A stretch of 8,963 nt of DNA from Candidatus Thorarchaeota archaeon (GCA_048882505.1 JBHLRO010000048.1:1-8963); one strand, 5' to 3'. Positions 490 to 8,963 are shown, counted from the stretch's first letter. A program made the numbers and translations. The notes: generated by a model not told the origin, from the sequence alone.

Positions 490-528
490 CTAACTCTTCT
501 ATCCAACACTTGCTGTAACAACGTAGCC

Positions 529-608
529 AGACATCAGATCGCTCCATTTCCACTGACTCTCCTCATCTGTTCGTCTCTTGCCTCCTAATCCTATCTGCCG
601 ATTGGGCC
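529..608 (+). repeat. Dispersed bipartite repeat, copy A (complete)
   Basis: Left arm AGACATCAGATCGCTCCATTT (529-549), pyrimidine-rich middle, right core TCCTAATCCTATCTGCCGATTGGGCC (583-608). Confidence 0.9.
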
Positions 609-741
609 ACAATAATCGGGATATTTTTGCTCCTACACCTTTGTTCCCTTCTAGATTATTACGATCTTCTCTAAACGATTTCAATAGAAGTAAAAGATAC
701 TCTCAAAATATAAACCAATCCCTCTCCAACGATTATTGTGG
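607..741. repeat. 135-nt segment bounded by a perfect 12-bp inverted repeat (possible MITE)
   Basis: CCACAATAATCG (607-618) is the exact reverse complement of CGATTATTGTGG (730-741). No target-site duplication seen. Confidence 0.4.
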
Positions 742-913
742 TACCTTCCCCATTCTTTGGAAAAAAACGGTGAAATCATTACCCTGCTAATCTTATAAAG
801 GTATGTTCATGGTGGTCTCGACCCAACTGTTCATGCACCTTTATACCAAGCGGTTCAAGACTCTAATCTGGAGACGAGAATCGACATCGAAGGTGTTGAA
901 GGGTGTGAAAGAC

Positions 914-1222
914 ATGGATAAAAGTAAAGATTTACGATGTACTGCGTGGAATAATGGAGGTAATGGGTGGGGGATCAGGATGGGAAAAGAACGCCACAAA
1001 ATAAGCAGGGATACTACATCTATAACGGTGAAACTAGCTGAAAAAACTATTGAACTCCCTATCAAGGATAGTTTTTGGACTACTTGTCCTGAAATTCGAA
1101 GTACAAAGATTAGAGAATTTTTCTTCCAACATGGCATCAATAAAGAGAACAAGACCAATTACTGGGTTATGCTTCATCAACAAAAAGATAGAGTCTTTGA
1201 TGTCACCATAAAACAGAGATAA
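914..1222 (+). CDS. Conserved-looking hypothetical protein (~102 aa, TAWNNG...SFW..CPE.RS motifs)
   Basis: Start moved from the track's 803 to ATG 914 (MDKSKDLRC...), which has GGGTGTGA upstream. The motifs CTAWNNGGNGWGIR and SFWTTCPEIRS resemble, from recollection and unverified, a widespread unnamed family. Confidence 0.75.
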   Translation: MDKSKDLRCTAWNNGGNGWGIRMGKERHKISRDTTSITVKLAEKTIELPIKDSFWTTCPEIRSTKIREFFFQHGINKENKTNYWVMLHQQKDRVFDVTIKQR

Positions 1223-1313
1223 AGTAACTTTCTATTCCAATGCCTTGTCATCTTTCAGCTTTGGTAAATCTACATCAGAAGCCAGAAGAAACACTGATCA
1301 TGAGGAACAGTCG

Positions 1314-2219
1314 ATGGAAGATGAATTAGAAACATTAATCAGCAAAATATGCACACAAATGCGGAGTTATCACGAGATAGACACTCTCAATGCTTTCCAA
1401 CAATTTCTATCTGCTCAACACCCTATTAAAACGTCTTTCATTAGTAATTCTGGGATCGACTTTAATAATAAGGTTCAAAGAATAAATTCCTTTTGGTTAA
1501 AGTCCTTTATGGCAATCCAGGTAGGGCAGGATCCTTTTTTCTATTCGAAATTAATATCTAATATGATATTTGGAGACAGATGGCATGAAAAACTAAAATC
1601 AACGTTGGGATCTAAGACTCTGGAGGAAGAAAAAACAAGAGAACCACTAGAATCACTTCAATTTTCAAAAAAAGATTATAATATTGTTGGATCCATGTTT
1701 TTTGTCCTTATGGTCGGATTAATAGAAGATTACTTAAGAAACTTAAATCTCGAAGTTATGGATACGGTCGAAAAGAGAATCGAAAAGAATAGATTAGGTG
1801 AATTAAGAAATAAGTATGTGAAAGGATCACTACTTAATAAAATTTGGGTAATATTTGATGAACTTGGTATTGAAGAGGTATTTGTTAAGAAAATATTAGA
1901 AAGAGAGAACTGTACAAGCTTTATTAATTCATTTAAACAGCTCGTAAATGATAGAAATAGAATCGCTCACAGTGGAAAGATCATTGATCTTTCCGACCTA
2001 GATTATGAAATCGATAGATTATCTCTATTATTAATTGATTTCATGACAGATCTGTTTGACTCTCAAATGAAAATTGCACGTTTTCCTAAATCTGAATACA
2101 AAGTCATAATTCAGAAATCAATGCCTTTTATGGTTTTTCTTTTTGCTATTTACATGAAGGTTGTTCCCTTACTGACAATTTTAGATCACTGCTTCATCTT
2201 CATCCGTAATTCCGGTTAA
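1314..2219 (+). CDS. HEPN-domain protein (putative RNase toxin or defence effector)
   Basis: RNRIAH matches the HEPN RxxxxH motif, in the typical helical context (FKQLVNDRNRIAHSG) and preceded by GLIEDYLR. Likely start ATG 1314 with TGAGGA SD 7 nt upstream; the track's TTG 1245 is less likely. Confidence 0.75.
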   Translation: MEDELETLISKICTQMRSYHEIDTLNAFQQFLSAQHPIKTSFISNSGIDFNNKVQRINSFWLKSFMAIQVGQDPFFYSKLISNMIFGDRWHEKLKSTLGSKTLEEEKTREPLESLQFSKKDYNIVGSMFFVLMVGLIEDYLRNLNLEVMDTVEKRIEKNRLGELRNKYVKGSLLNKIWVIFDELGIEEVFVKKILERENCTSFINSFKQLVNDRNRIAHSGKIIDLSDLDYEIDRLSLLLIDFMTDLFDSQMKIARFPKSEYKVIIQKSMPFMVFLFAIYMKVVPLLTILDHCFIFIRNSG

Positions 2220-2281
2220 AAAATGGAACTTCGACCACTTTTCTATGAAATTTCCTAAATGCACCTTGAAATGGCAGTTAA

Positions 2282-2325
2282 TCCTAATCCTATCTGACGA
2301 TCGGCCTACTCACTTCAAAACGATT
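2282..2325 (+). repeat. Dispersed repeat, copy B (right core plus extension; left arm degenerate or absent)
   Basis: TCCTAATCCTATCTGACGATCGGCCTACTCACTTCAAAACGATT; 35/44 identical to copy D by manual count. Confidence 0.9.
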
Positions 2326-2391
2326 TCCCTAGTGTTGTTTATCATAACAGCAGAAGGCAAATAATACCATAACTGATAAAATGGGGTTTAT

Positions 2392-3018
2392 ATGAAAATT
2401 AACAAGCTTTGGTATAGTAAGGACTCAAATGTATGGACTAACGCATTGGATAACTACTGGAGTTATATTAAACCCTCGAACATGGCGCTAGAGCGAGAAT
2501 TAGACTCACTGGATCCAATTATTGTAAGCAGAATTAATGTTTCAGAGTTTTACGCCTTTTTGCTACATAAATATTTTAAATGGAAGTATACCGCTCCTCA
2601 CAGGTATGCAAGTACAACGAAATTCCTTAAGCAGTACCCAAGCGGTACGATGTCTGATCTTGGCAAAATCAAAGAAGCTTTATTTCAATTTGACAAAAAT
2701 GATATCAAGAATGGATTGAAAATAGCTAATAAGATACGGGGATTAGGCCCTGCTGGTGCCTCGGGACTGCTGGCATTATTATTCCCCCAATACTATAGCA
2801 CTGTTGATCAGTTCGTGGTCAAAGCATTATCTGAGATTACGGATCTCCCCCAAAGAACTTTGATAATGAGAATGAAACCCGAATCATTGAGCTTGAAGGA
2901 TGGAGCTTTATTAATTCAGATAATGCGGGATAAAGCTAAAGCACTCAATACCGCTTTTAACACGAATTTTTGGACTCCCAGAAAAGTAGATATGGTGCTA
3001 TGGACCTATGGTAGGTAA
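2392..3018 (+). CDS. HhH-GPD-fold DNA glycosylase-like protein
   Basis: Helix-hairpin-helix IRGLGPAGASGLLALL followed by STVDQFV (VD motif carrying the conserved Asp), and C-terminal TPRKVDMVLW. GGGGT upstream of the ATG. Confidence 0.65.
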   Translation: MKINKLWYSKDSNVWTNALDNYWSYIKPSNMALERELDSLDPIIVSRINVSEFYAFLLHKYFKWKYTAPHRYASTTKFLKQYPSGTMSDLGKIKEALFQFDKNDIKNGLKIANKIRGLGPAGASGLLALLFPQYYSTVDQFVVKALSEITDLPQRTLIMRMKPESLSLKDGALLIQIMRDKAKALNTAFNTNFWTPRKVDMVLWTYGR

Positions 3019-3091
3019 AAATGGTAGCTTCAGGTTCCAACAAACTTCTCGATGAAGCAGGTGCTGAAAGCATCAAAAATTAATACATAAG

Positions 3092-3108
3092 CATCAGACC
3101 GACCCATT
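3092..3108 (+). repeat. Orphan left arm of the dispersed repeat
   Basis: CATCAGACCGACCCATT is 14/17 identical to copy A (532-548), and the three differences match copies F and G. Preceded by AAAAAT as in E, F and G. No right core follows at the expected distance. Confidence 0.7.
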
Positions 3109-3517
3109 AGATACTAGAGGGATTAAACCACGTTACGCCGCTAGAATTAATTTTTCGTTCTATTTCAAGGCGGTACATTCTATATTTGACGACGAAATTT
3201 GCCAGGTAAAATGCAAAAGCAAAGACCAGGAATACTGAAAAAAACGTTAAATTTCCAATCAAATTTTGAAGATTTGACCCTAGATATTCGTATAATACTA
3301 GAATAAGATTTAAGGAACTGGCAAGGATTGTTACCTTAGAAAAAGCCAATGATTCGAATCTTTTTCGAAATGTTGATCTTTTGTATAAGGGAATTGTAAC
3401 CTTCCAAAAATGATCTTTATAGATAAAGACTGAAAAAATGGAGAGAAGTAGAGTCACCGCGACATACCCAGTCATCTCTATTTGAAACGCAAAGAGTACC
3501 AGGACTATCGTACTCAT
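3107..3517 (-). CDS. Small membrane protein, 3 or more hydrophobic segments (5' end uncertain; start may be ATG 3475)
   Basis: Hydrophobic segments YVAVTLLLSIFSVFIY, VTILASSLNLILVLY and LTFFSVFLVFAFAFYLANFVV. Its stop overlaps the orphan repeat arm, and its 5' end overlaps the GTPase C-half head-to-head. Confidence 0.6.
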   Translation of the reverse strand: MSTIVLVLFAFQIEMTGYVAVTLLLSIFSVFIYKDHFWKVTIPLYKRSTFRKRFESLAFSKVTILASSLNLILVLYEYLGSNLQNLIGNLTFFSVFLVFAFAFYLANFVVKYRMYRLEIERKINSSGVTWFNPSSI

Positions 3518-3850
3518 ATCCTCAATCAGGACATCCCAATATATTTGGTTGGCTGTAAAGGCCTTCTACATAATAAAGCCAAAAGCAAATCATTCCGAAA
3601 GAAGACATTGAAATGGTTAGAGGAAAAAGCGGTCCGTTATGAGGTTGCTGAGGCCATAGACTTAGTAACCGGGGATTTCACGGAAAAGAAAAGTGCATGT
3701 TCAGGTGACGCGGTTTCAATGTCTGAAGGCAAGGAACAAGCAGCTAGGATGGGGGCAGCATATTACGAGGTCAATGTTTGGACAGATGGCCCATTGATTG
3801 AAGAAATCTTTCACGAGATTGTAAATAACCTACCAAAAACCAAGGGTTGA
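3482..3850 (+). pseudogene. C-terminal half of a degenerate Rab/Ras-like small GTPase
   Basis: DIPIYLVGCK (beta5/G4 region, canonical xPxxLVGNKxD), VSMSEGKEQAARMGAAYYEV (alpha4/beta6/G5) and IEEIFHEIV (alpha5). No P-loop. TTG start without SD, and an in-frame stop at 3449. Confidence 0.65.
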
Positions 3851-3892
3851 GGAAGTGAGGATGCTAAGAGGGGTCATAGATACCTTCATCGA

Positions 3893-3970
3893 GCTGTTCT
3901 AGAAAGGAACAGTCCAATCGTCAGATAGGATTAGTATAGATAAGACTTATCGAAAGGTAGAGGAGTGGGG
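3893..3970 (-). repeat. Dispersed repeat, copy C (middle plus right core, inverted; left arm missing)
   Basis: Reverse complement reads CCCCACTCCTCTACCTTTCGAT...ACTAATCCTATCTGACGATTGGACTGTTCCTTTCTAGAACAGC. 29-nt perfect match (3900-3928) to copy E (5439-5467); the middle CCTCTACCT-TTCGAT is shared with copy G. Confidence 0.9.
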
Positions 3971-4174
3971 CATCCAAGGAGCCTCCTGGCCTTTATTTGT
4001 TGAAATCCTAATATCTGCCATGTTCTGTTCGCGATAATAAACATCGAAATCAAGGGTGAATTCTACTCCTGTTCTAAATTCTGGTTCTTGAGTCAACTCT
4101 CGGAGAAATTTTGATTTCAATGAAGGAGGGCCCCCTACCGTTAGAACTCGTACAAATTGTTCGTTTTTGGCCAT
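3947..4174 (-). pseudogene. N-terminal half of a degenerate Rab/Ras-like small GTPase, truncated just after G3
   Basis: Likely start ATG 4174 with GAGGAG SD at 4185-4190. VRVLTVGGPPSLKS (degenerate G1), RTGVEF (Rab-like TxGVEF effector motif), ISTNKGQE (cf. WDTAGQE). The last codons (PHSSTFR*) are read from repeat copy C. Confidence 0.6.
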
Positions 4175-4325
4175 TTGGGTGCCACTCCTCGTTCTATTAC
4201 TCACCTAAAGGCGATCTGTTTCTTTTCCAGAGAAGACATAGGGGTAGATATCCCCTTTAAGAGTCCTTCATTCTAGGCCTTTCTACCAAAAATCCTGTTA
4301 CAATTACCTGTTTATTGGCTCTGTA

Positions 4326-4369
4326 TCCTCATCCGATCTGACAATCCGACCACTCGTTTCAACACGATT
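4326..4369 (+). repeat. Dispersed repeat, copy D (degenerate right core plus extension)
   Basis: TCCTCATCCGATCTGACAATCCGACCACTCGTTTCAACACGATT aligns without gaps to copies B and F. Confidence 0.75.
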
Positions 4370-4574
4370 CGTCCATGTAAGTATCTCAAGTTCAAACCGT
4401 AGCATACGGCTTATTTTCTGGGGCCTACCAGATCAAACATTCGCTGTATATCGGGAGCAATATTCATATTAATAATGGTCTTCTTACTCTGTTCCATCAT
4501 TTTCCTGTATTGATGGGCAACGGATCTAGTAATTGATTGAATATTGTGGAAGTAATTCATTTCCTCACGAATAA

Positions 4575-4985
4575 TTAGTATCGATACTCTTTAACTCTCA
4601 GATTCTGGATAGATGGTAAATCTTTCTCGGTAGTATGAAGAACAAGGCTTTCATTCAGTACATATGCAATGACTAAACAATCAAAGTACGAAAGTATTCT
4701 TCTATATTGACACTTTAATCCTCCTGCCTTCAGGATTATATCATTTGATAACGATACAAATATTACTGGATAATTCTTCTGGAAAGCACTTACGCTTGAT
4801 TCAGCAAAGGATTTCCCGTTGGCTATACATAAATGCTTGAATACTTCAACTAAAATCGGAAAAATAACATAAGCTTCAGTTTTTTGTTGTTTAATATCAT
4901 TCATGAGGCTTGTTATTTCTTTAGGCTCGTCCTTAGTAAAGTGAAGTGTGATAGGCCCTGTATCAAGACAGATTCTCCCAGGCAT
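4575..4985 (-). CDS. vapC: PIN-domain toxin (VapC family)
   Basis: N-terminal ICLDTG, ILVEV, LSYFDCLVIAYVLNESLVLHTTEKD follow the PIN acidic-residue pattern. ATG overlaps the antitoxin stop (TAATG at 4983-4987). Confidence 0.9.
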   Translation of the reverse strand: MPGRICLDTGPITLHFTKDEPKEITSLMNDIKQQKTEAYVIFPILVEVFKHLCIANGKSFAESSVSAFQKNYPVIFVSLSNDIILKAGGLKCQYRRILSYFDCLVIAYVLNESLVLHTTEKDLPSIQNLRVKEYRY

Positions 4986-5224
4986 TATTTTTCTAACTCC
5001 AGTTCGGCTTCCCTAGATCTTTTCAGGATTTCCAGCATTTGTTTTGTAGTAATAGATCGCTTTTGGAGAGTTTTAATACTCTCAAGTGGAATGATTTTCA
5101 ACATTCCTTCATCCTCTACGACGATAACTTGATCTCCATCTTGCAGGCCATATTTTCTCCTTAAACTAGCCGGAATAGTAACCATCCCACGATTGGTAAC
5201 TTTCACGATCCTATCAAGCGTCAA
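4985..5224 (-). CDS. vapB: AbrB/MazE/SpoVT-family antitoxin (VapB)
   Basis: IVKVTNRGMVTIPASLRRKYGLQDGDQV is the classic AbrB swapped-hairpin signature. TTG start with AAGTGAT upstream; translationally coupled to vapC. Confidence 0.9.
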   Translation of the reverse strand: MTLDRIVKVTNRGMVTIPASLRRKYGLQDGDQVIVVEDEGMLKIIPLESIKTLQKRSITTKQMLEILKRSREAELELEK

Positions 5225-5265
5225 TTCAAATCACTTAGTTATTTGAATCCTTACTAAGTATATAA
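5224..5265 (-). promoter_or_regulatory. Archaeal TATA promoter and candidate autoregulatory operator of vapBC
   Basis: TTATATAC on the - strand (5258-5265), 34 nt upstream of the start codon. Two interleaved perfect inverted repeats: ATTCAAAT (5224-5231)/ATTTGAAT (5241-5248) and ACTTAGT (5233-5239)/ACTAAGT (5253-5259). Confidence 0.55.
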
Positions 5266-5377
5266 GATTTATGCTTAGAGTTTGGCCATCTTTTGTTCCT
5301 TTTTTTTTCTATCTTTTTGAATTATCGGGGGTATGCGATATAGGACAACCTAGAAAAACCAGGAAAAAATGATCAAC

Positions 5378-5474
5378 AGACATCAGATGGCTCCATTTCC
5401 CCTGTTTTTCCACGATTGTCCTTTTTTCTATCCTAACACTATCTGACGATTGGACTGTTCCTTTCTAACATAGC
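5378..5474 (+). repeat. Dispersed repeat, copy E (complete)
   Basis: Left arm AGACATCAGATGGCTCCATTT (5378-5398); right core TCCTAACACTATCTGACGATTGGACTGTTCCTTTCTA (5431-5467). Confidence 0.9.
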
Positions 5475-5520
5475 TATAGTTTTCTACTCTATTATTGGTT
5501 AATTCGCATCTCTTATTTAA

Positions 5521-5832
5521 TCATATGAAAGAGTGATCATAATTCTTCACTCCTAAAAAGGTGATAAGTGAAATCATTTCTTCCCATCCTTGTTTTCGAA
5601 CTTTTCCCCTAATGAAAGATCCTCCTTTCTCGTTTAGGGTTCGCTTTATTGGAAGAAAGAAAGGTCCGTAATTTAGCTTATACGCATTTACACAAATATC
5701 TCTATAGTCATCAGTTTCATGCACAATTTCGAATTTTATCAGAATAGCTCCATGACCAAAGAGATGACTAAGGATCCCTCCTCTCTTTATTTTTATAAAG
5801 CCGCAGTCATTGATATCGGGTTCTTTTAAAAA
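5521..5832 (-). pseudogene. Start-less open frame, possibly the 3' remnant of an unknown gene
   Basis: The frame of track ORF 5521..5724 stays open to 5832 (...CGFIKIKRGGILSHLFGHGAILIKFEIVHETDDYRD...) with no ATG/GTG/TTG upstream of 5724, and overlaps the FG-GAP stop. Confidence 0.4.
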
Positions 5833-7435
5833 TTAGTAGTATTGAAATTAACCCGAGACTAAGTAAAGTGGGCATTAATGAAATTGAACTAGCCTGAGTT
5901 AAGATTAATACTGGAAATGGATATAGAACCATATAACTTTTCCCTGCCCTAACTCCACTGTCCCCATTCCATTTTGCACCGATAATAAAGTCATTGAATC
6001 CATCTTTATTTACATCGCCAGTTCCAGAAACAGAACTACCAAACAGATCATTCTGTGATTCTCCTGTAAAGGTAGCATTAGCTTCAGAAATGGGTGTATC
6101 CATCTCCCATTGTTCAGTAGTTTGGCCAAGAAAAAGGTAAGCTCGACCAGCATCGACTCCACCCTTGTCATTTCGATTTGCTGTAATAATGAAATCATCT
6201 AGGTTATCCCCGTTTGTATCACCCAATCCCGCTCCTGACCATCCTGCTTGATCTCCTGCCGCTTCTCCGATAAATGAGGCATCCGCTGCTGATAAGCTCA
6301 TATCCATGTTCCATTCCGTCGTCTCACGCCCAAGAAAGAGATAAATCTGACCAGCAGTATCCCCTCCTTCATCGTTACCAATTGCGCCAATGATAAAGTC
6401 ATCATACCCATCATTATTTACGTCCCCAGCACCAGAAACACTATTCCCTAATTCATCCCGTGCGTTTTCTCCGATAAATGATGCATCAACTCCTGAAAGA
6501 TCCACATCCAAATGCCATTCGCCCGTTGCACGCCCAAAAATAAGATAAGCTTGTCCAGCAAAAGACCCTCCTTCATCGTTACCCCCTGCCCCAATCATAA
6601 TATCATCATAATCATCATTATTGATATCCCCTACAATCTCTATATTAATTCCTACCTCATCATCTGGTTCTTCTCCGATAAATGAGGCATCTGCCGCTGA
6701 TAAGCTCATATCCATGCTCCAATCCGTCGTCTCACGCCCAAGAAAGAGATAAACCTGACCAGCATTATCTCCCCCTTCATCGTTACCAGGTGCGCCAATA
6801 ACAATGTCATCATACCCATCATTATTTACGTCCCCAGCACCAGAAATACCTGTTAATGTATCTCCAGTAGTTGCAATAAATGAGGCATCCGCCGCTGATA
6901 AGCTCATATCCATGCTCCATTCCGTCGTCTCACGCCCAAGAAAGAGATAAATCTGACCAGCATTATCCCCTCCTTCATCATTTAATGGTGCGCTAATCGC
7001 TAAATCATCATAATCGTCATTATTAACATTTCCTATCCCAGAGACTTCAAATCCAGACCAATCACCGCTTGCTTCACCAATTAACGAAGCATCTGCATCC
7101 GCTAAAGACGGATCAGCATTCCATAATTCTGTATCTCGACCGAATACAAGATATGTCTGCCCCGTATTTGCTCCTCCTTCATCATTAAATAGCGCACTAA
7201 TCGCAAAATCATCAAATCCATCATTATTAACATCTCCTGTGATAGTCACATCCGATCCTGACCAATCTTCCTCAAATTCTCCAGTATATTCGACAACTCT
7301 GACATCATCGTGAATTGCATAGGCTCGAACACTGCCATTGGAAACAGATAGAGAATTTTGAAATTGTAAAATAGTCGTTTGAAAGAAGCTTAAAAATAGA
7401 AGAATAATGATAAACAAAAATCTAGAGGTTCTCAT
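5807..7435 (-). CDS. Cell-surface FG-GAP (integrin-alpha-like) seven-bladed beta-propeller protein
   Basis: N-terminal signal peptide (MRTSRFLFIIILLFLSFF). Seven repeats of G(D/N)xNxDxxxD...A...G..Y, with DxNxDGxDD-type Ca-binding loops and ~68-aa period. C-terminal TM plus basic tail (LMPTLLSLGLISILLIFKRTRYQ). GGTG SD at 7443-7446. Confidence 0.9.
   Translation of the reverse strand: MRTSRFLFIIILLFLSFFQTTILQFQNSLSVSNGSVRAYAIHDDVRVVEYTGEFEEDWSGSDVTITGDVNNDGFDDFAISALFNDEGGANTGQTYLVFGRDTELWNADPSLADADASLIGEASGDWSGFEVSGIGNVNNDDYDDLAISAPLNDEGGDNAGQIYLFLGRETTEWSMDMSLSAADASFIATTGDTLTGISGAGDVNNDGYDDIVIGAPGNDEGGDNAGQVYLFLGRETTDWSMDMSLSAADASFIGEEPDDEVGINIEIVGDINNDDYDDIMIGAGGNDEGGSFAGQAYLIFGRATGEWHLDVDLSGVDASFIGENARDELGNSVSGAGDVNNDGYDDFIIGAIGNDEGGDTAGQIYLFLGRETTEWNMDMSLSAADASFIGEAAGDQAGWSGAGLGDTNGDNLDDFIITANRNDKGGVDAGRAYLFLGQTTEQWEMDTPISEANATFTGESQNDLFGSSVSGTGDVNKDGFNDFIIGAKWNGDSGVRAGKSYMVLYPFPVLILTQASSISLMPTLLSLGLISILLIFKRTRYQ
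6263..6979. repeat. Near-identical intragenic blade repeats inside the FG-GAP gene
   Basis: 6263-6438 vs 6671-6846: 163/176 identical. 6270-6373 vs 6876-6979: 101/104 identical (manual counts). Blade period 204 nt, with one interval of 198 nt. Confidence 0.9.
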
Positions 7436-7473
7436 TTTTTAACACCTTTTGATTAAGAAAATAAAACAATAAA

Positions 7474-7647
7474 TCAGATATTTTTTATTCTCAAAATTAT
7501 TATTGGAAAAAATACTATAGCTAATATGGGAACAATGACTACTTTGATTATCAAGAATCCGGCGAAGGTAGGACTTATCAAATTAGTGATAAAAACTGGG
7601 ACAAACACCGCAAGAAGATTAATTAGAGAATAGATTACGAATAATGT
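7474..7647 (-). pseudogene. Possible remnant of a small membrane-protein gene
   Basis: 58 codons including the TGA, no start: TLFVIYSLINLLAVFVPVFITNLISPTFAGFLIIKVVIVPILAIVFFPIIILRIKNI*. Preceded by an in-frame TAG; ends 38 nt before the FG-GAP start on the same strand. Confidence 0.25.
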
Positions 7648-7733
7648 CTAAAAAGGAAATAGGGTCACTTGTTCACTAAAATTTCAAGAAAAATGGTGAT
7701 TTTATTAACGGATACTCAAAAATGATTGACTAC

Positions 7734-7828
7734 AGTCACCAGACCGCTCCTCCATTTCTATGCTCCTTCAATTGTTCTTCTTTCTCCTAATCCTATCTGA
7801 CGATCGGACCGCTCGTGTCTGAAGACAG
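7734..7828 (+). repeat. Dispersed repeat, copy F (complete)
   Basis: Left arm AGTCACCAGACCGCTCC (7734-7750); right core TCCTAATCCTATCTGACGATCGGACCGCTCGTGTC (7785-7819). Confidence 0.9.
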
Positions 7829-7988
7829 TAACCGTCTTCTTTCCCAATTGAGTTCGCAAGAGGCTTAACCAAATTTACTTTCTTGTTTTAACTCGTTTTG
7901 GACAGGCAAATTAAGAACGTAATTTTCTTAAGGAAATATACATTCTTTCTCTGTTAAATAACGATGAACCTATCAATGAAGTGATTTG

Positions 7989-8873
7989 ATGCCGTTTAGA
8001 ATCGGACTAACCATTCAAGGACTTGGGGAGCTCACCCCCTCAACTCTCATCAAACTCGGAAATGTTATAGCGCTGGAGCACATAGAATTCGATGTCTCAG
8101 TTTTTACTGATTTAGAAGACGTTAAACAAGTAATTAAAGCCAAACAAACTGCTATTCATGCTCCTTATTCACCCGATTATAAATATGATCTCTCATTTCC
8201 ATCTGAAGACGCTGACCAACTAGTAACCGCTATTCTCAAAGCGAAAGCAGATTTAAATATCATTGGAGTCGTGGTTCATTCCCCCAAAGAGACTAATGAC
8301 TTATTCTATGAACGCGTGTCACAACTCCCCTTTCCATTACTTGAAAACATCCCCAATCAATCGTGGGATACTTTCATGGCATTTCGAGATAAGGTTAGAG
8401 AGAATTCCACTAAGAATTTTGGATATTGTTTTGATATCCCTCATTCTTTTATTACCAATGGCGATGCCTTCTTAGACGTCCCACCCGAAGTGATGACATC
8501 CCTAAAAAGGAAATCAGGGTACATCCATATTTCAGGCGGGAAGAGACATCACGACCAGCATTTTCCCTTAGTTACTGAAGGGGATATCCCATTTCACGAG
8601 ATTAAATCCTTTTTGAAAGATATCCAGTTTTCGGGGACTGTTACCATGGAACTCGTTCCCCGCTCGCTGGAGGATGTTTCTAAAATGCTGAAATCTTACA
8701 GCATTATGTTGAATGTGGCAGGAAAACGATTTCAGAGTTTGGTAGCTAGATTAAAAGCGAAAATCGTCATGTATAGGATGAGTAAATATAAAGACCAAAT
8801 TAATTCCGAATTGAAAGGCCTAAAAACCCATTTTGATGATTATATCGAATCTCAACGCACAGAAGAATTCTAG
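7989..8873 (+). CDS. Xylose-isomerase-like TIM barrel (AP endonuclease 2 / sugar phosphate isomerase-epimerase family)
   Basis: Metal-ligand motifs in the expected order: AIHAPY, VVHSP, LLENIP, CFDIPH, YIHISG, DQHFPL, TMEL. ATG 7989 is preceded by AAGTGAT. Confidence 0.85.
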   Translation: MPFRIGLTIQGLGELTPSTLIKLGNVIALEHIEFDVSVFTDLEDVKQVIKAKQTAIHAPYSPDYKYDLSFPSEDADQLVTAILKAKADLNIIGVVVHSPKETNDLFYERVSQLPFPLLENIPNQSWDTFMAFRDKVRENSTKNFGYCFDIPHSFITNGDAFLDVPPEVMTSLKRKSGYIHISGGKRHHDQHFPLVTEGDIPFHEIKSFLKDIQFSGTVTMELVPRSLEDVSKMLKSYSIMLNVAGKRFQSLVARLKAKIVMYRMSKYKDQINSELKGLKTHFDDYIESQRTEEF

Positions 8874-8890
8874 CAGAGAAAAAATTCAAC

Positions 8891-8963
8891 AGACACCAAA
8901 TCGACCCGTTCCCCCTCTACCTCTTCGATTGCATTTGAATTGTCTCCTAACACTATCTGACGA
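8891..8963 (+). repeat. Dispersed repeat, copy G (cut by the window end)
   Basis: Left arm AGACACCAAATCGACCCGTT (8891-8910); right core TCCTAACACTATCTGACGA (8945-8963). Begins 17 nt after the TIM-barrel stop. Confidence 0.9.

Follow-up and report, generated by a model that had tools for sequence, protein, structure and literature searches.

Orphan copies of the 23S rRNA tail bound gene modules at a Hodarchaeales locus

The analysed window is a whole contig of 8,963 nt (C48; JBHLRO010000048.1 of GCA_048882505.1) from an Asgard (Hodarchaeales) genome, referred to here as G000. The first gene, 148–489 (−), encodes a small membrane and zinc-ribbon protein with weak zinc-ribbon hits in Pfam, one of five paralogues in the arrays of this genome (one each on contigs C45, C48 and C52, and two on C47). 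It is followed at 803–2219 (+) by a 139-aa ORF of no known family and a 324-aa protein with a weak HEPN match (PF18735, E 0.0014, below the Pfam cut-off), for which nothing was found in PADLOC or NCBIfam. The 208-aa protein at 2392–3018 (+), called HhH in the preliminary description, had no hit in Pfam, NCBIfam or PADLOC. The two halves of a Ras-like GTPase follow on opposite strands as pseudogene pieces: the C-terminal half at 3482–3850 (+) (PF00071, E 0.004) and the N-terminal half at 3947–4204 (−). Further downstream are a vapBC-type toxin-antitoxin pair at 4575–5224 (−), consisting of a PIN toxin (4575–4985; PF01850, E 3.5e-5) and an AbrB/MazE antitoxin (4985–5224; PF04014, E 6.9e-13; TIGR01439), a secreted FG-GAP repeat protein at 5807–7435 (−) (PF01839, E 5e-43, 7 repeats), and a xylose-isomerase-like TIM-barrel protein at 7986–8873 (+) (PF01261, E 7e-15). 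PADLOC gave no defence-system hit for the cargo. The PIN, AbrB/MazE, FG-GAP, TIM-barrel and Ras-like C-terminal assignments were confirmed, whereas HEPN remained weak and HhH obtained no family support. Exact-protein look-ups found no record of the TIM-barrel protein, while the 208-aa protein was found on one Logan contig (SRR30758835) with the same arrangement, which gives no alternative context.

These genes are separated by seven copies of a unit of ~100 nt, six on + and one on −. The right core CCTAATCCTATCTGACGAT, allowing up to 3 mismatches, matched at 584, 2283, 3917 (−), 4327, 5432 and 7786, that is, 6 matches against 0.01 expected, and none of 200 shuffles reached 6; a seventh copy at 8946 is cut by the contig end. 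The left box CAGACATCAGACCGCTCC lies about 55 nt upstream in units A, E and F (3 matches against 0.01 expected), with a weaker one in G. Unit extents were determined with a sequence-only covariance model of 18 copies (R1). Units A (519–613, +; left box 528–545, right core 584–602; R1 positions 2–96, 77.6 bits), E (5371–5470, +; positions 5–105, 79.4 bits) and F (7726–7823, +; positions 4–104, 73.0 bits) are full copies, and similarity of A to the other units is lost after ...CTGCCGAT. Unit B (2243–2324, +; positions 33–108, 32.4 bits) is a partial copy with an intact right core (exact 19-mer at 2283) and a degenerate left part, unit C (3896–3965, −; positions 38–106, 37.8 bits) consists of the spacer plus right core (3917–3935, 1 mismatch), and unit D (4313–4368, +; positions 53–108, 29.3 bits) of the right core only (3 mismatches). 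Unit G (8887–8963, +; positions 8–84, 51 bits) is cut by the contig end inside the right core. All copies lie between the long ORFs, although C overlaps the last codons of the 85-aa ORF at 3947–4204, which reads into it. The co-oriented repeat reported in the preliminary description is therefore real, with the corrections that B, C and D are partial or degenerate and that the window is a whole contig ending inside G.

The single minus-strand copy belongs to an inverted segment (3109–3965), as the preliminary description had proposed. An orphan left box (GCATCAGACCGACCCATT) remains on + at 3091–3108, sharing a 10-nt exact run, CATCAGACCG, with the left-box consensus (about 0.02 such runs are expected by chance in the window), whereas the rest of unit C lies on − at 3965–3896. 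A hidden Markov model (HMM) of array GTPases from relatives matched + 3491–3562 and 3698–3829 (HMM positions 101–166) and, weakly, − 4174–4085 (positions 2–31, E 0.03), and four inverted-repeat pairs (I1–I3 and I7) were also associated with the segment. However, a simple re-inversion does not restore an intact gene, because about 290 extra nt remain, and a tblastn search with the two halves found no intact copy in G000 or in contig C8 of the relative G007.

The unit is the 3' trailer of the 23S rRNA gene, which is the 3' strand of the pre-rRNA processing stem, and it often carries a remnant of the 23S 3' end. Although an Rfam search of the window at E up to 1 returned nothing, Rfam placed LSU rRNA positions 2721–2973 directly beside units on C45 and C52, and the 23S 5' end directly after a leader-type copy on C38. 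Leader and trailer co-folded into a long stem of −109 and −132 kcal/mol, with complementarity over about 100 nt; on reading, only one side of its bulge-helix-bulge-like motif looked canonical (4-bp helix plus 3-nt bulge). The native 23S 3' end of G000 is not assembled, and the link between array and gene therefore rests on the same-genus relative G004, where a contiguous 23S (model positions 1068–2973) is followed by the native trailer, and a second copy in the same direction lies 3.6 kb further on. We had expected the native 23S to read CCTATCTG|ACG at the orphan boundary, but this was ruled out by G004, which reads TTTATCTATTGG|ACGTG. The retained 23S portion ranges from 5 to 311 nt, and most units carry only 5–35 nt. 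Transfer RNA scans of eight loci gave nothing, so the units are not tRNA-derived att sites.

The units are strongly clustered rather than spread genome-wide: 27 of 34 nhmmer hits lie on six small contigs totalling 43.7 kb, or 1% of the genome, and these strong copies share one direction within each contig, regardless of gene direction. Same-genus genomes showed the same architecture, with 22 of 22 copies on one strand over 84 kb in G010 (contig C12, 440.9–525.0 kb; none in 395–440 kb) and 28 of 29 over 55 kb in G007 (C8). The copies decay with distance from one end: in G010 they scored 99–128 bits at 485–525 kb (except for three truncated copies, 37–53 bits) and 12–66 bits, more widely spaced, at 440–484 kb, and a model built from another species found only the 485–525 kb copies. 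The same trend was observed on C20 of G000. The G000 model scored 60–92 bits in G000, at most 68 in the nearest relative and under 35 in the others, consistent with concerted evolution. A loose pattern scan of genome contigs returned 81 stretches, mostly chance matches, of which only seven loci were real, from five Hodarchaeota/Heimdall-group MAGs (TM2S.58, DZ2M.341, DZ1M.117, CSMAG_10 and WORE3). A scan of JGI metagenomes with the right core gave four loci matching only the 20-mer, with no arrays, and a closed genome of another family (G028) showed no tail repeats in the 20 kb after its 23S gene.

The modules bounded by the units recur in different contexts. A 490-nt module bounded inside units at both ends (model positions 49 and 55) sits between different neighbours on C47 and C52, and unit A with its neighbouring zinc-ribbon gene is 95% identical to C47 8377–8978, where the right-hand neighbour differs and the identity ends inside the right core. 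Shared blocks end at model positions of about 33–39, 49–56, 74–81 and 95–101, although BLAST end points are fuzzy and this is only moderate evidence for variable junctions. Arrays in sister species carry almost no shared cargo, and the cargo is often Ras-like GTPases. Gene direction is mixed, at about 55:45, with 20/33, 24/46 and 37/66 ORFs in the 23S sense (binomial p = 0.30, 0.88 and 0.39, respectively). No tyrosine (PF00589) or serine (PF00239) recombinase gene was found in any array examined, including G007 C8 and G010 C12 440–525 kb, and no family of interest appeared at the array edges. The only PF00589 gene in G000 is Xer-like and lies on C5, although absence of others is not proven in a MAG that is 94.5% complete.

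The preliminary interpretation, an undescribed recombination-site family or a miniature mobile element driving gene capture, was thus only partly supported. Clustering, common direction, recurrent modules, species-variable cargo and the inversion at C agree with it, and integron-like organisation is a fair description, but an integron-like mechanism is not shown, and the unit is neither an undescribed site family nor a miniature transposon. As in sedentary chromosomal integrons, such as the Vibrio super-integron with its VCR sites, and archaeal integrons or CALINs (Ghaly et al. 2022, PMC9668308), sites of ~100 nt in one direction lie between small, unrelated, often orphan or toxin-antitoxin modules in arrays of tens of kilobases, and arrays without an integrase are common. 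In contrast, the site here is an rRNA gene tail rather than a folded attC: five copies folded on both strands gave z-scores of −0.22 to +1.81 against shuffles and minimum free energies of −2.9 to −9 kcal/mol, one strand being pyrimidine-rich. No IntI was found, genes do not share one direction, junctions were not at one fixed nucleotide, and in G004 the second copy follows a 23S gene rather than an attI site.

The units also resemble tandem elements integrated at the 3' ends of RNA or housekeeping genes, where the 3' part of the gene is duplicated as attL and attR, as in tRNA and tmRNA islands (Williams 2002, cited in PMC8813620). SCCmec composite islands at rlmH are a further example. In both cases the direct repeats copy the 3' end of a gene and point the same way as the gene, and displaced 3' fragments pile up downstream. 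However, the arrays here contain 22–29 units with modules of 0.4–5 kb, no module carries an integrase, and the retained 23S length varies; our literature searches found no report of a 23S rRNA 3' end or trailer as the target. The unit corresponds to one strand of the archaeal pre-23S processing stem (PMC7038931, PMC12918454), but about 30 copies have no 23S gene and no partner strand, and no published case of multiplied stem halves was found. By analogy only, the 3' end of eukaryotic rRNA genes (replication fork barrier, Fob1) is also a site of recurrent recombination and circle formation in a heavily transcribed gene, although those events change rDNA copy number and do not capture foreign genes.

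The identity of the repeats as orphan 23S tails, and their layout as same-direction copies punctuating a 45–85 kb island of unrelated one- to four-gene modules, are established by these data, whereas the mechanism is inferred from sequence alone. We consider it somewhat more likely than not that modules are repeatedly inserted and reshuffled by recombination within the tail. In this view, a circle carrying one tail copy would recombine with a resident tail (Campbell-type), leaving a tail on each side of the insert; recombination between two direct tails would pop modules out again or duplicate them; gene conversion would keep copies alike within a species; and copies far from one end, by unit orientation the 23S end, would decay. 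General homologous recombination (RadA-type) is judged more likely than a dedicated site-specific enzyme, because junctions fall at several places and no recombinase is linked to any array. However, homologous recombination cannot by itself give a tail to a new, unrelated gene, yet the cargo is highly diverse. In addition, the distal unit edge is sharp and the same in several species, orphan 23S domain-VI pieces start within about 20 nt of one another in four species, and breakpoints recur after the left box and after ...GACGAT, all of which a sequence-specific enzyme would give.

A true integron analogue, in which an unlinked or unrecognised site-specific recombinase, possibly the universal XerA-type enzyme, would act at a defined point in the tail serving as both attB and attC, is possible but less likely. 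The common direction and polarity, the second tail copy in G004, the existence of half-units, and two boxes conserved across species, including CAGAC-AT-CAGAC and the small palindrome TCCTATC-TGAC-GATTGGA, agree with it, and every genome of the genus examined holds one XerA-like gene scoring 157–166 bits. However, no recombinase gene lies in or at the edges of the 45–85 kb arrays of three species, junctions fall at four or more positions, no single-strand hairpin forms, and there is no dif-like 11-6-11 palindrome as in Xer/dif-type modules (IMEX, pdif; PMC2958812), the best match being 6/11, which 77% of shuffles equal.

It is unlikely that the copies persist because they act as RNA, each pairing with the 23S leader or an inverted copy to direct cutting by the splicing endonuclease, or acting as a decoy or regulator of rRNA maturation. 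The two boxes conserved in orphan copies are stem segments, the right core holds the 4-bp helix and 3-nt bulge (CGUC plus an AGA bulge, half of the bulge-helix-bulge-like motif) facing the leader's GGCG, and Asgard archaea circularise 23S transcripts (PMC12918454). However, same-direction copies cannot pair with each other, there is one leader for about 30 trailers, many copies are truncated or decayed, and this reading explains conservation but not the cassette layout. It is very unlikely that the stand-alone domain-VI pieces are the working 3' part of a split 23S gene. They begin at the same place in four species, at least one per genome keeps an intact sarcin-ricin loop, the only domain-VI copy of G010 stands alone in a 525-kb contig, and positions 2079–2720 are missing from several assemblies; but G004 has a contiguous 23S across the boundary, copies number up to 11 per genome, some are clearly decayed (one has a mutated sarcin-ricin loop and a 7-nt deletion), and most units carry little 23S. 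An ordinary dispersed element (miniature transposon, REP-type repeat, repeated promoter or terminator) or an assembly artefact is already largely refuted, although the units are intergenic, short and numerous and contigs break at them, because the copies are confined to one island in one direction, no terminal inverted repeats or target duplications were seen in the unit alignments, there is no fixed relation to gene direction or distance, an independent Logan contig reproduces window 527–6317 at 99.98%, and the same architecture appears in several independently assembled species.

In practical terms, these units and the orphan domain-VI pieces break assemblies and can be mistaken for rRNA genes or split rRNA genes. 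The system would add a second, unrelated way to build cassette arrays, with a site borrowed from an rRNA gene tail and no dedicated integrase linked to it, and it marks a 45–85 kb hypervariable island per genome where orphan genes, toxin-antitoxin pairs and many Ras-like GTPase paralogues turn over, in the archaeal lineage used to reason about eukaryote origins. More tentatively, Hodarchaeales, among the closest known archaeal relatives of eukaryotes, may run a gene-capture platform of a new kind anchored at the 3' end of the 23S rRNA gene, with the trailer serving as the recombination site either for an unrecognised enzyme or through a programmed break at the end of the gene. New modules would then enter next to the gene and older ones would decay outward, and the island would also be a nursery where Ras-family GTPases, a eukaryotic signature family, are duplicated and diversified.

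The window represents a complete 8,963-nt contig (C48) of a 4.32-Mb assembly consisting of 83 contigs with a G+C content of 41%. Repeat finding and pattern scans confirmed the repeat copies, and the preliminary description of a dispersed, largely co-oriented intergenic repeat therefore held. The right core CCTAATCCTATCTGACGAT, allowing up to 3 mismatches, matched at 584, 2283, 3917 (minus strand), 4327, 5432, and 7786 (copies A to F, respectively), i.e., 6 matches against 0.01 expected, and none of 200 shuffles reached 6; a seventh copy (G) at 8946 was cut by the contig end. Approximately 55 nt upstream, copies A, E, and F carried the left box CAGACATCAGACCGCTCC (3 matches against 0.01 expected), while copy G had a weaker one. 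The full unit was about 100 nt long and was composed of the left box, a pyrimidine-rich variable spacer, the right core, and then ...GGACTGCTCGTTTCAAC. The left box is a direct pentamer pair (CAGAC-AT-CAGAC), and the right core contains a small imperfect palindrome (TCCTATC-TGAC-GATTGGA, with 6/7 arm matches and a 4-nt spacer), for example at window positions 7790-7807. Copies B, C, and D were partial or degenerate, and all copies lay between the long ORFs. The cargo predictions of the preliminary description mostly held, with a PIN toxin and an AbrB/MazE antitoxin, an FG-GAP repeat protein, a xylose-isomerase-like TIM barrel, Ras-like pieces, a weak HEPN match, and two proteins with no family; the toxin-antitoxin pair (vapBC) lies between copies D and E, and the TIM barrel lies between F and G. 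Five tandem repeats of ~200 nt (62-100% identity) at 6242-7251 lie inside the FG-GAP gene and correspond to its protein repeats.

The identity of the unit was revealed by scanning the other repeat-bearing contigs with Rfam. On contigs C45 and C52, the last ~310 nt of an archaeal 23S rRNA (model positions 2721-2973) abutted a unit, so the reverse complement of the unit is the 23S 3' trailer. On C38, a weaker unit in the opposite relation was located directly upstream of the 23S 5' end, and that copy is the leader. The leader and trailer co-folded into a long stem (-109 and -132 kcal/mol), which is the archaeal pre-23S processing stem. By our reading, the CGUC of the trailer pairs with the GGCG of the leader next to a 3-nt AGA bulge, which is half of a bulge-helix-bulge-like motif, and this motif lies in the conserved right core. 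Many units retained a remnant of the 23S 3' end, with lengths of 311 nt in the units C45_1708 and C52_7402, about 25 nt in the unit C45_41, about 5 nt in most copies of this genome (G000), and about 27-36 nt in most copies of G010, a relative of the same genus. The dispersed copies are therefore derived from the trailer, not the leader. The bin also contained a second, complete LSU rRNA (contig C57, 307-3242) that was only 75-80% identical to the Hodarchaeales-type 23S on C38; its flanks carried no unit, and it probably represents a contaminant contig or a second organism.

In this genome, in which the native 23S 3' end is unassembled, nhmmer detected 34 copies. Of these, 27 were located on six small contigs (C45, C47, C48, C52, C59, and C81) that total 43.7 kb, or 1% of the genome, and one was the leader copy on C38. 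The remaining six were weak, degenerate copies in one direction on C20 at 13.8-33.8 kb, whose scores fell along the contig (25, 26.5, 16, 13, 16.5, and 12 bits) among ordinary-looking genes; this region is probably the old, distal part of the same island. Within each contig, all copies shared one strand, except for copy C of the window. Contig ends lay at or close to units or at shared modules, and an independent Logan contig (SRR30758835) carrying window positions 527-6317 starts at unit A. The six contigs are probably pieces of one locus that was broken up by the repeats, and their G+C content (38-41%) fits that of the genome.

A sequence-only model of 18 copies found matches in six other genomes of the same genus, but none in 19 genomes of other genera of the class. 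Using species-specific profiles, we found 29 units, 28 of them on one strand, on a 54.8-kb contig of one relative (G007:C8). A 525.5-kb contig of G010 (C12) held 22 units, all on one strand, from 440.9 to 525.0 kb, and none in the 46 kb before that. In G010, the units at 485-525 kb scored 99-128 bits (three truncated copies there scored 37-53), whereas those at 440-484 kb scored 12-66 bits and were more widely spaced. A profile built from another species found only the 485-525 kb copies, so this gradient is not an artefact of the choice of seeds. By the orientation of the units, the well-kept end points toward the 23S gene. In another relative (G004), a contiguous 23S (model positions 1068-2973) was followed by its native trailer, and a second trailer in the same direction was located 3.6 kb downstream; there, a tail copy follows the native tail directly. 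A closed genome of another family showed no such repeats after its 23S gene.

Orphan pieces of 23S domain VI were multi-copy across the genus, with up to 11 hits in one genome. In four species they began within about 20 nt of the same 23S position, each with an unrelated upstream flank. One copy had a mutated sarcin-ricin loop and a deletion, so at least some of these pieces are decaying. On contig C44 of G004 (~1745-1765), the native 23S reads TATCTATTGGAC just before the point where the orphan pieces start, and the trailer carries the reverse complement of TATCTGACGATTGGAC; domain VI is thus bracketed by an imperfect inverted repeat that could pair in the RNA. Independent assemblies were also found to break at the same 23S positions, as G000:C38 (position 1) and G016:C9 (72465) both stop at Rfam position 2078, while G033:C1 (136836), from another family, stops at 2717, which is the orphan domain-VI boundary. 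This hints at repeats or insertions at these rRNA positions beyond this genus.

Among 259 ORFs in the arrays of six species, few had a homologue in the array of another species, and none of the cargo of the window did. The largest family was Ras-type small GTPases, with 16 paralogues in four species, and all ten members tested matched PF00071. The arrays on G007:C8 and G010:C12 (440-525 kb) were rich in such divergent GTPase modules, many with weak P-loop scores, and the split GTPase of the window belongs to this kind. Within this genome, a zinc-ribbon membrane protein recurred five times. In G010:C12, a ~220-aa ORF of no known family recurred three times (468662-469321, 483035-483703, and 515628-516305), each copy lying just beyond a unit or beyond the domain-VI orphan. 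Gene direction was unbiased (20/33, 24/46, and 37/66 ORFs in the 23S sense), and the direction of the units is therefore not a by-product of transcription.

As far as paralogous blocks can show, the units do bound mobile modules. A 490-nt block on C47 (5329-5821) was 91.5% identical to C52 (5035-5526); it begins and ends inside units, at model positions 49 and 55, and sits between different neighbours. C48 1-602 was 95% identical to C47 8978-8377, and the identity stopped inside the right core after ...GACGAT. C45 1395-1805 matched C47 805-393, and that identity stopped exactly at the trailer/23S boundary. The end points differed from case to case, clustering after the left box, in the spacer, after GACGAT, and at the unit end; although BLAST end points are imprecise, the spread was larger than that imprecision.

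The single copy on the minus strand had been ascribed in the preliminary description to an inversion through the repeat itself. An orphan left box remained on the plus strand at 3091-3108, while the spacer and right core lay on the minus strand at 3965-3896. An HMM built from the array GTPases of relatives matched the C-terminal half on the plus strand (3491-3829) and the N-terminal end on the minus strand (4174-4085). A segment of about 860 nt (roughly 3109-3965) is therefore inverted, with one break inside the unit, just after the left box, and the other in a Ras-like gene. The gene is not restored by simple re-inversion, because about 290 nt are in excess, and it is a decayed pseudogene.

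The features of known systems were then examined one by one. Regarding integrons, ten single-strand folds gave z-scores from -0.22 to +1.81, so there is no hairpin; no IntI was found, gene direction was mixed, and junctions varied. Regarding Xer/dif-type modules, as defined in PMC2958812, there was no 11-6-11 palindrome beyond chance. No serine recombinase lay in any array, and neither the array edges nor the first modules carried a recombinase-like family. The preliminary interpretation, an integron-like organisation built on an undescribed recombination-site family or a miniature mobile element, was only partly supported. Literature searches on Asgard integrons, Asgard mobile elements, 23S integration sites, and processing stems found none that describes arrays of 23S tails; the papers reached included those on archaeal integrons with folded attC sites (PMC9668308), aloposons and tRNA-integrating elements (PMC8813620), and archaeal Tn7-like elements (bioRxiv 10.1101/2025.07.27.667033).

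Overall, our analysis established the identity of the unit, its clustering, uniform direction, and polarity, the reshuffling of modules at units, and the absence of a linked recombinase of known family, whereas the mechanism is inferred from assembled sequences alone. We tentatively place homologous recombination ahead of a site-specific enzyme, as favoured by the variable junctions and the missing enzyme. The site-specific reading remains possible, though less likely, because of the sharp, conserved distal edge of the unit, the recurrent break sites, and the conserved start of the domain-VI orphans, and neither model explains how a new gene first acquires a tail. RNA-level roles for the orphan stem halves are possible in a lineage that circularises 23S (PMC12918454), but they cannot explain the layout. 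A miniature transposon or regulatory repeat is excluded by the confinement to one island, the uniform direction, and the lack of any fixed relation to genes. In the inferred mechanism, modules enter and move by recombination in the tail: a circle that carries one tail would integrate into a resident tail and leave two, two direct tails could recombine to excise or duplicate a module, and conversion would homogenise the copies.
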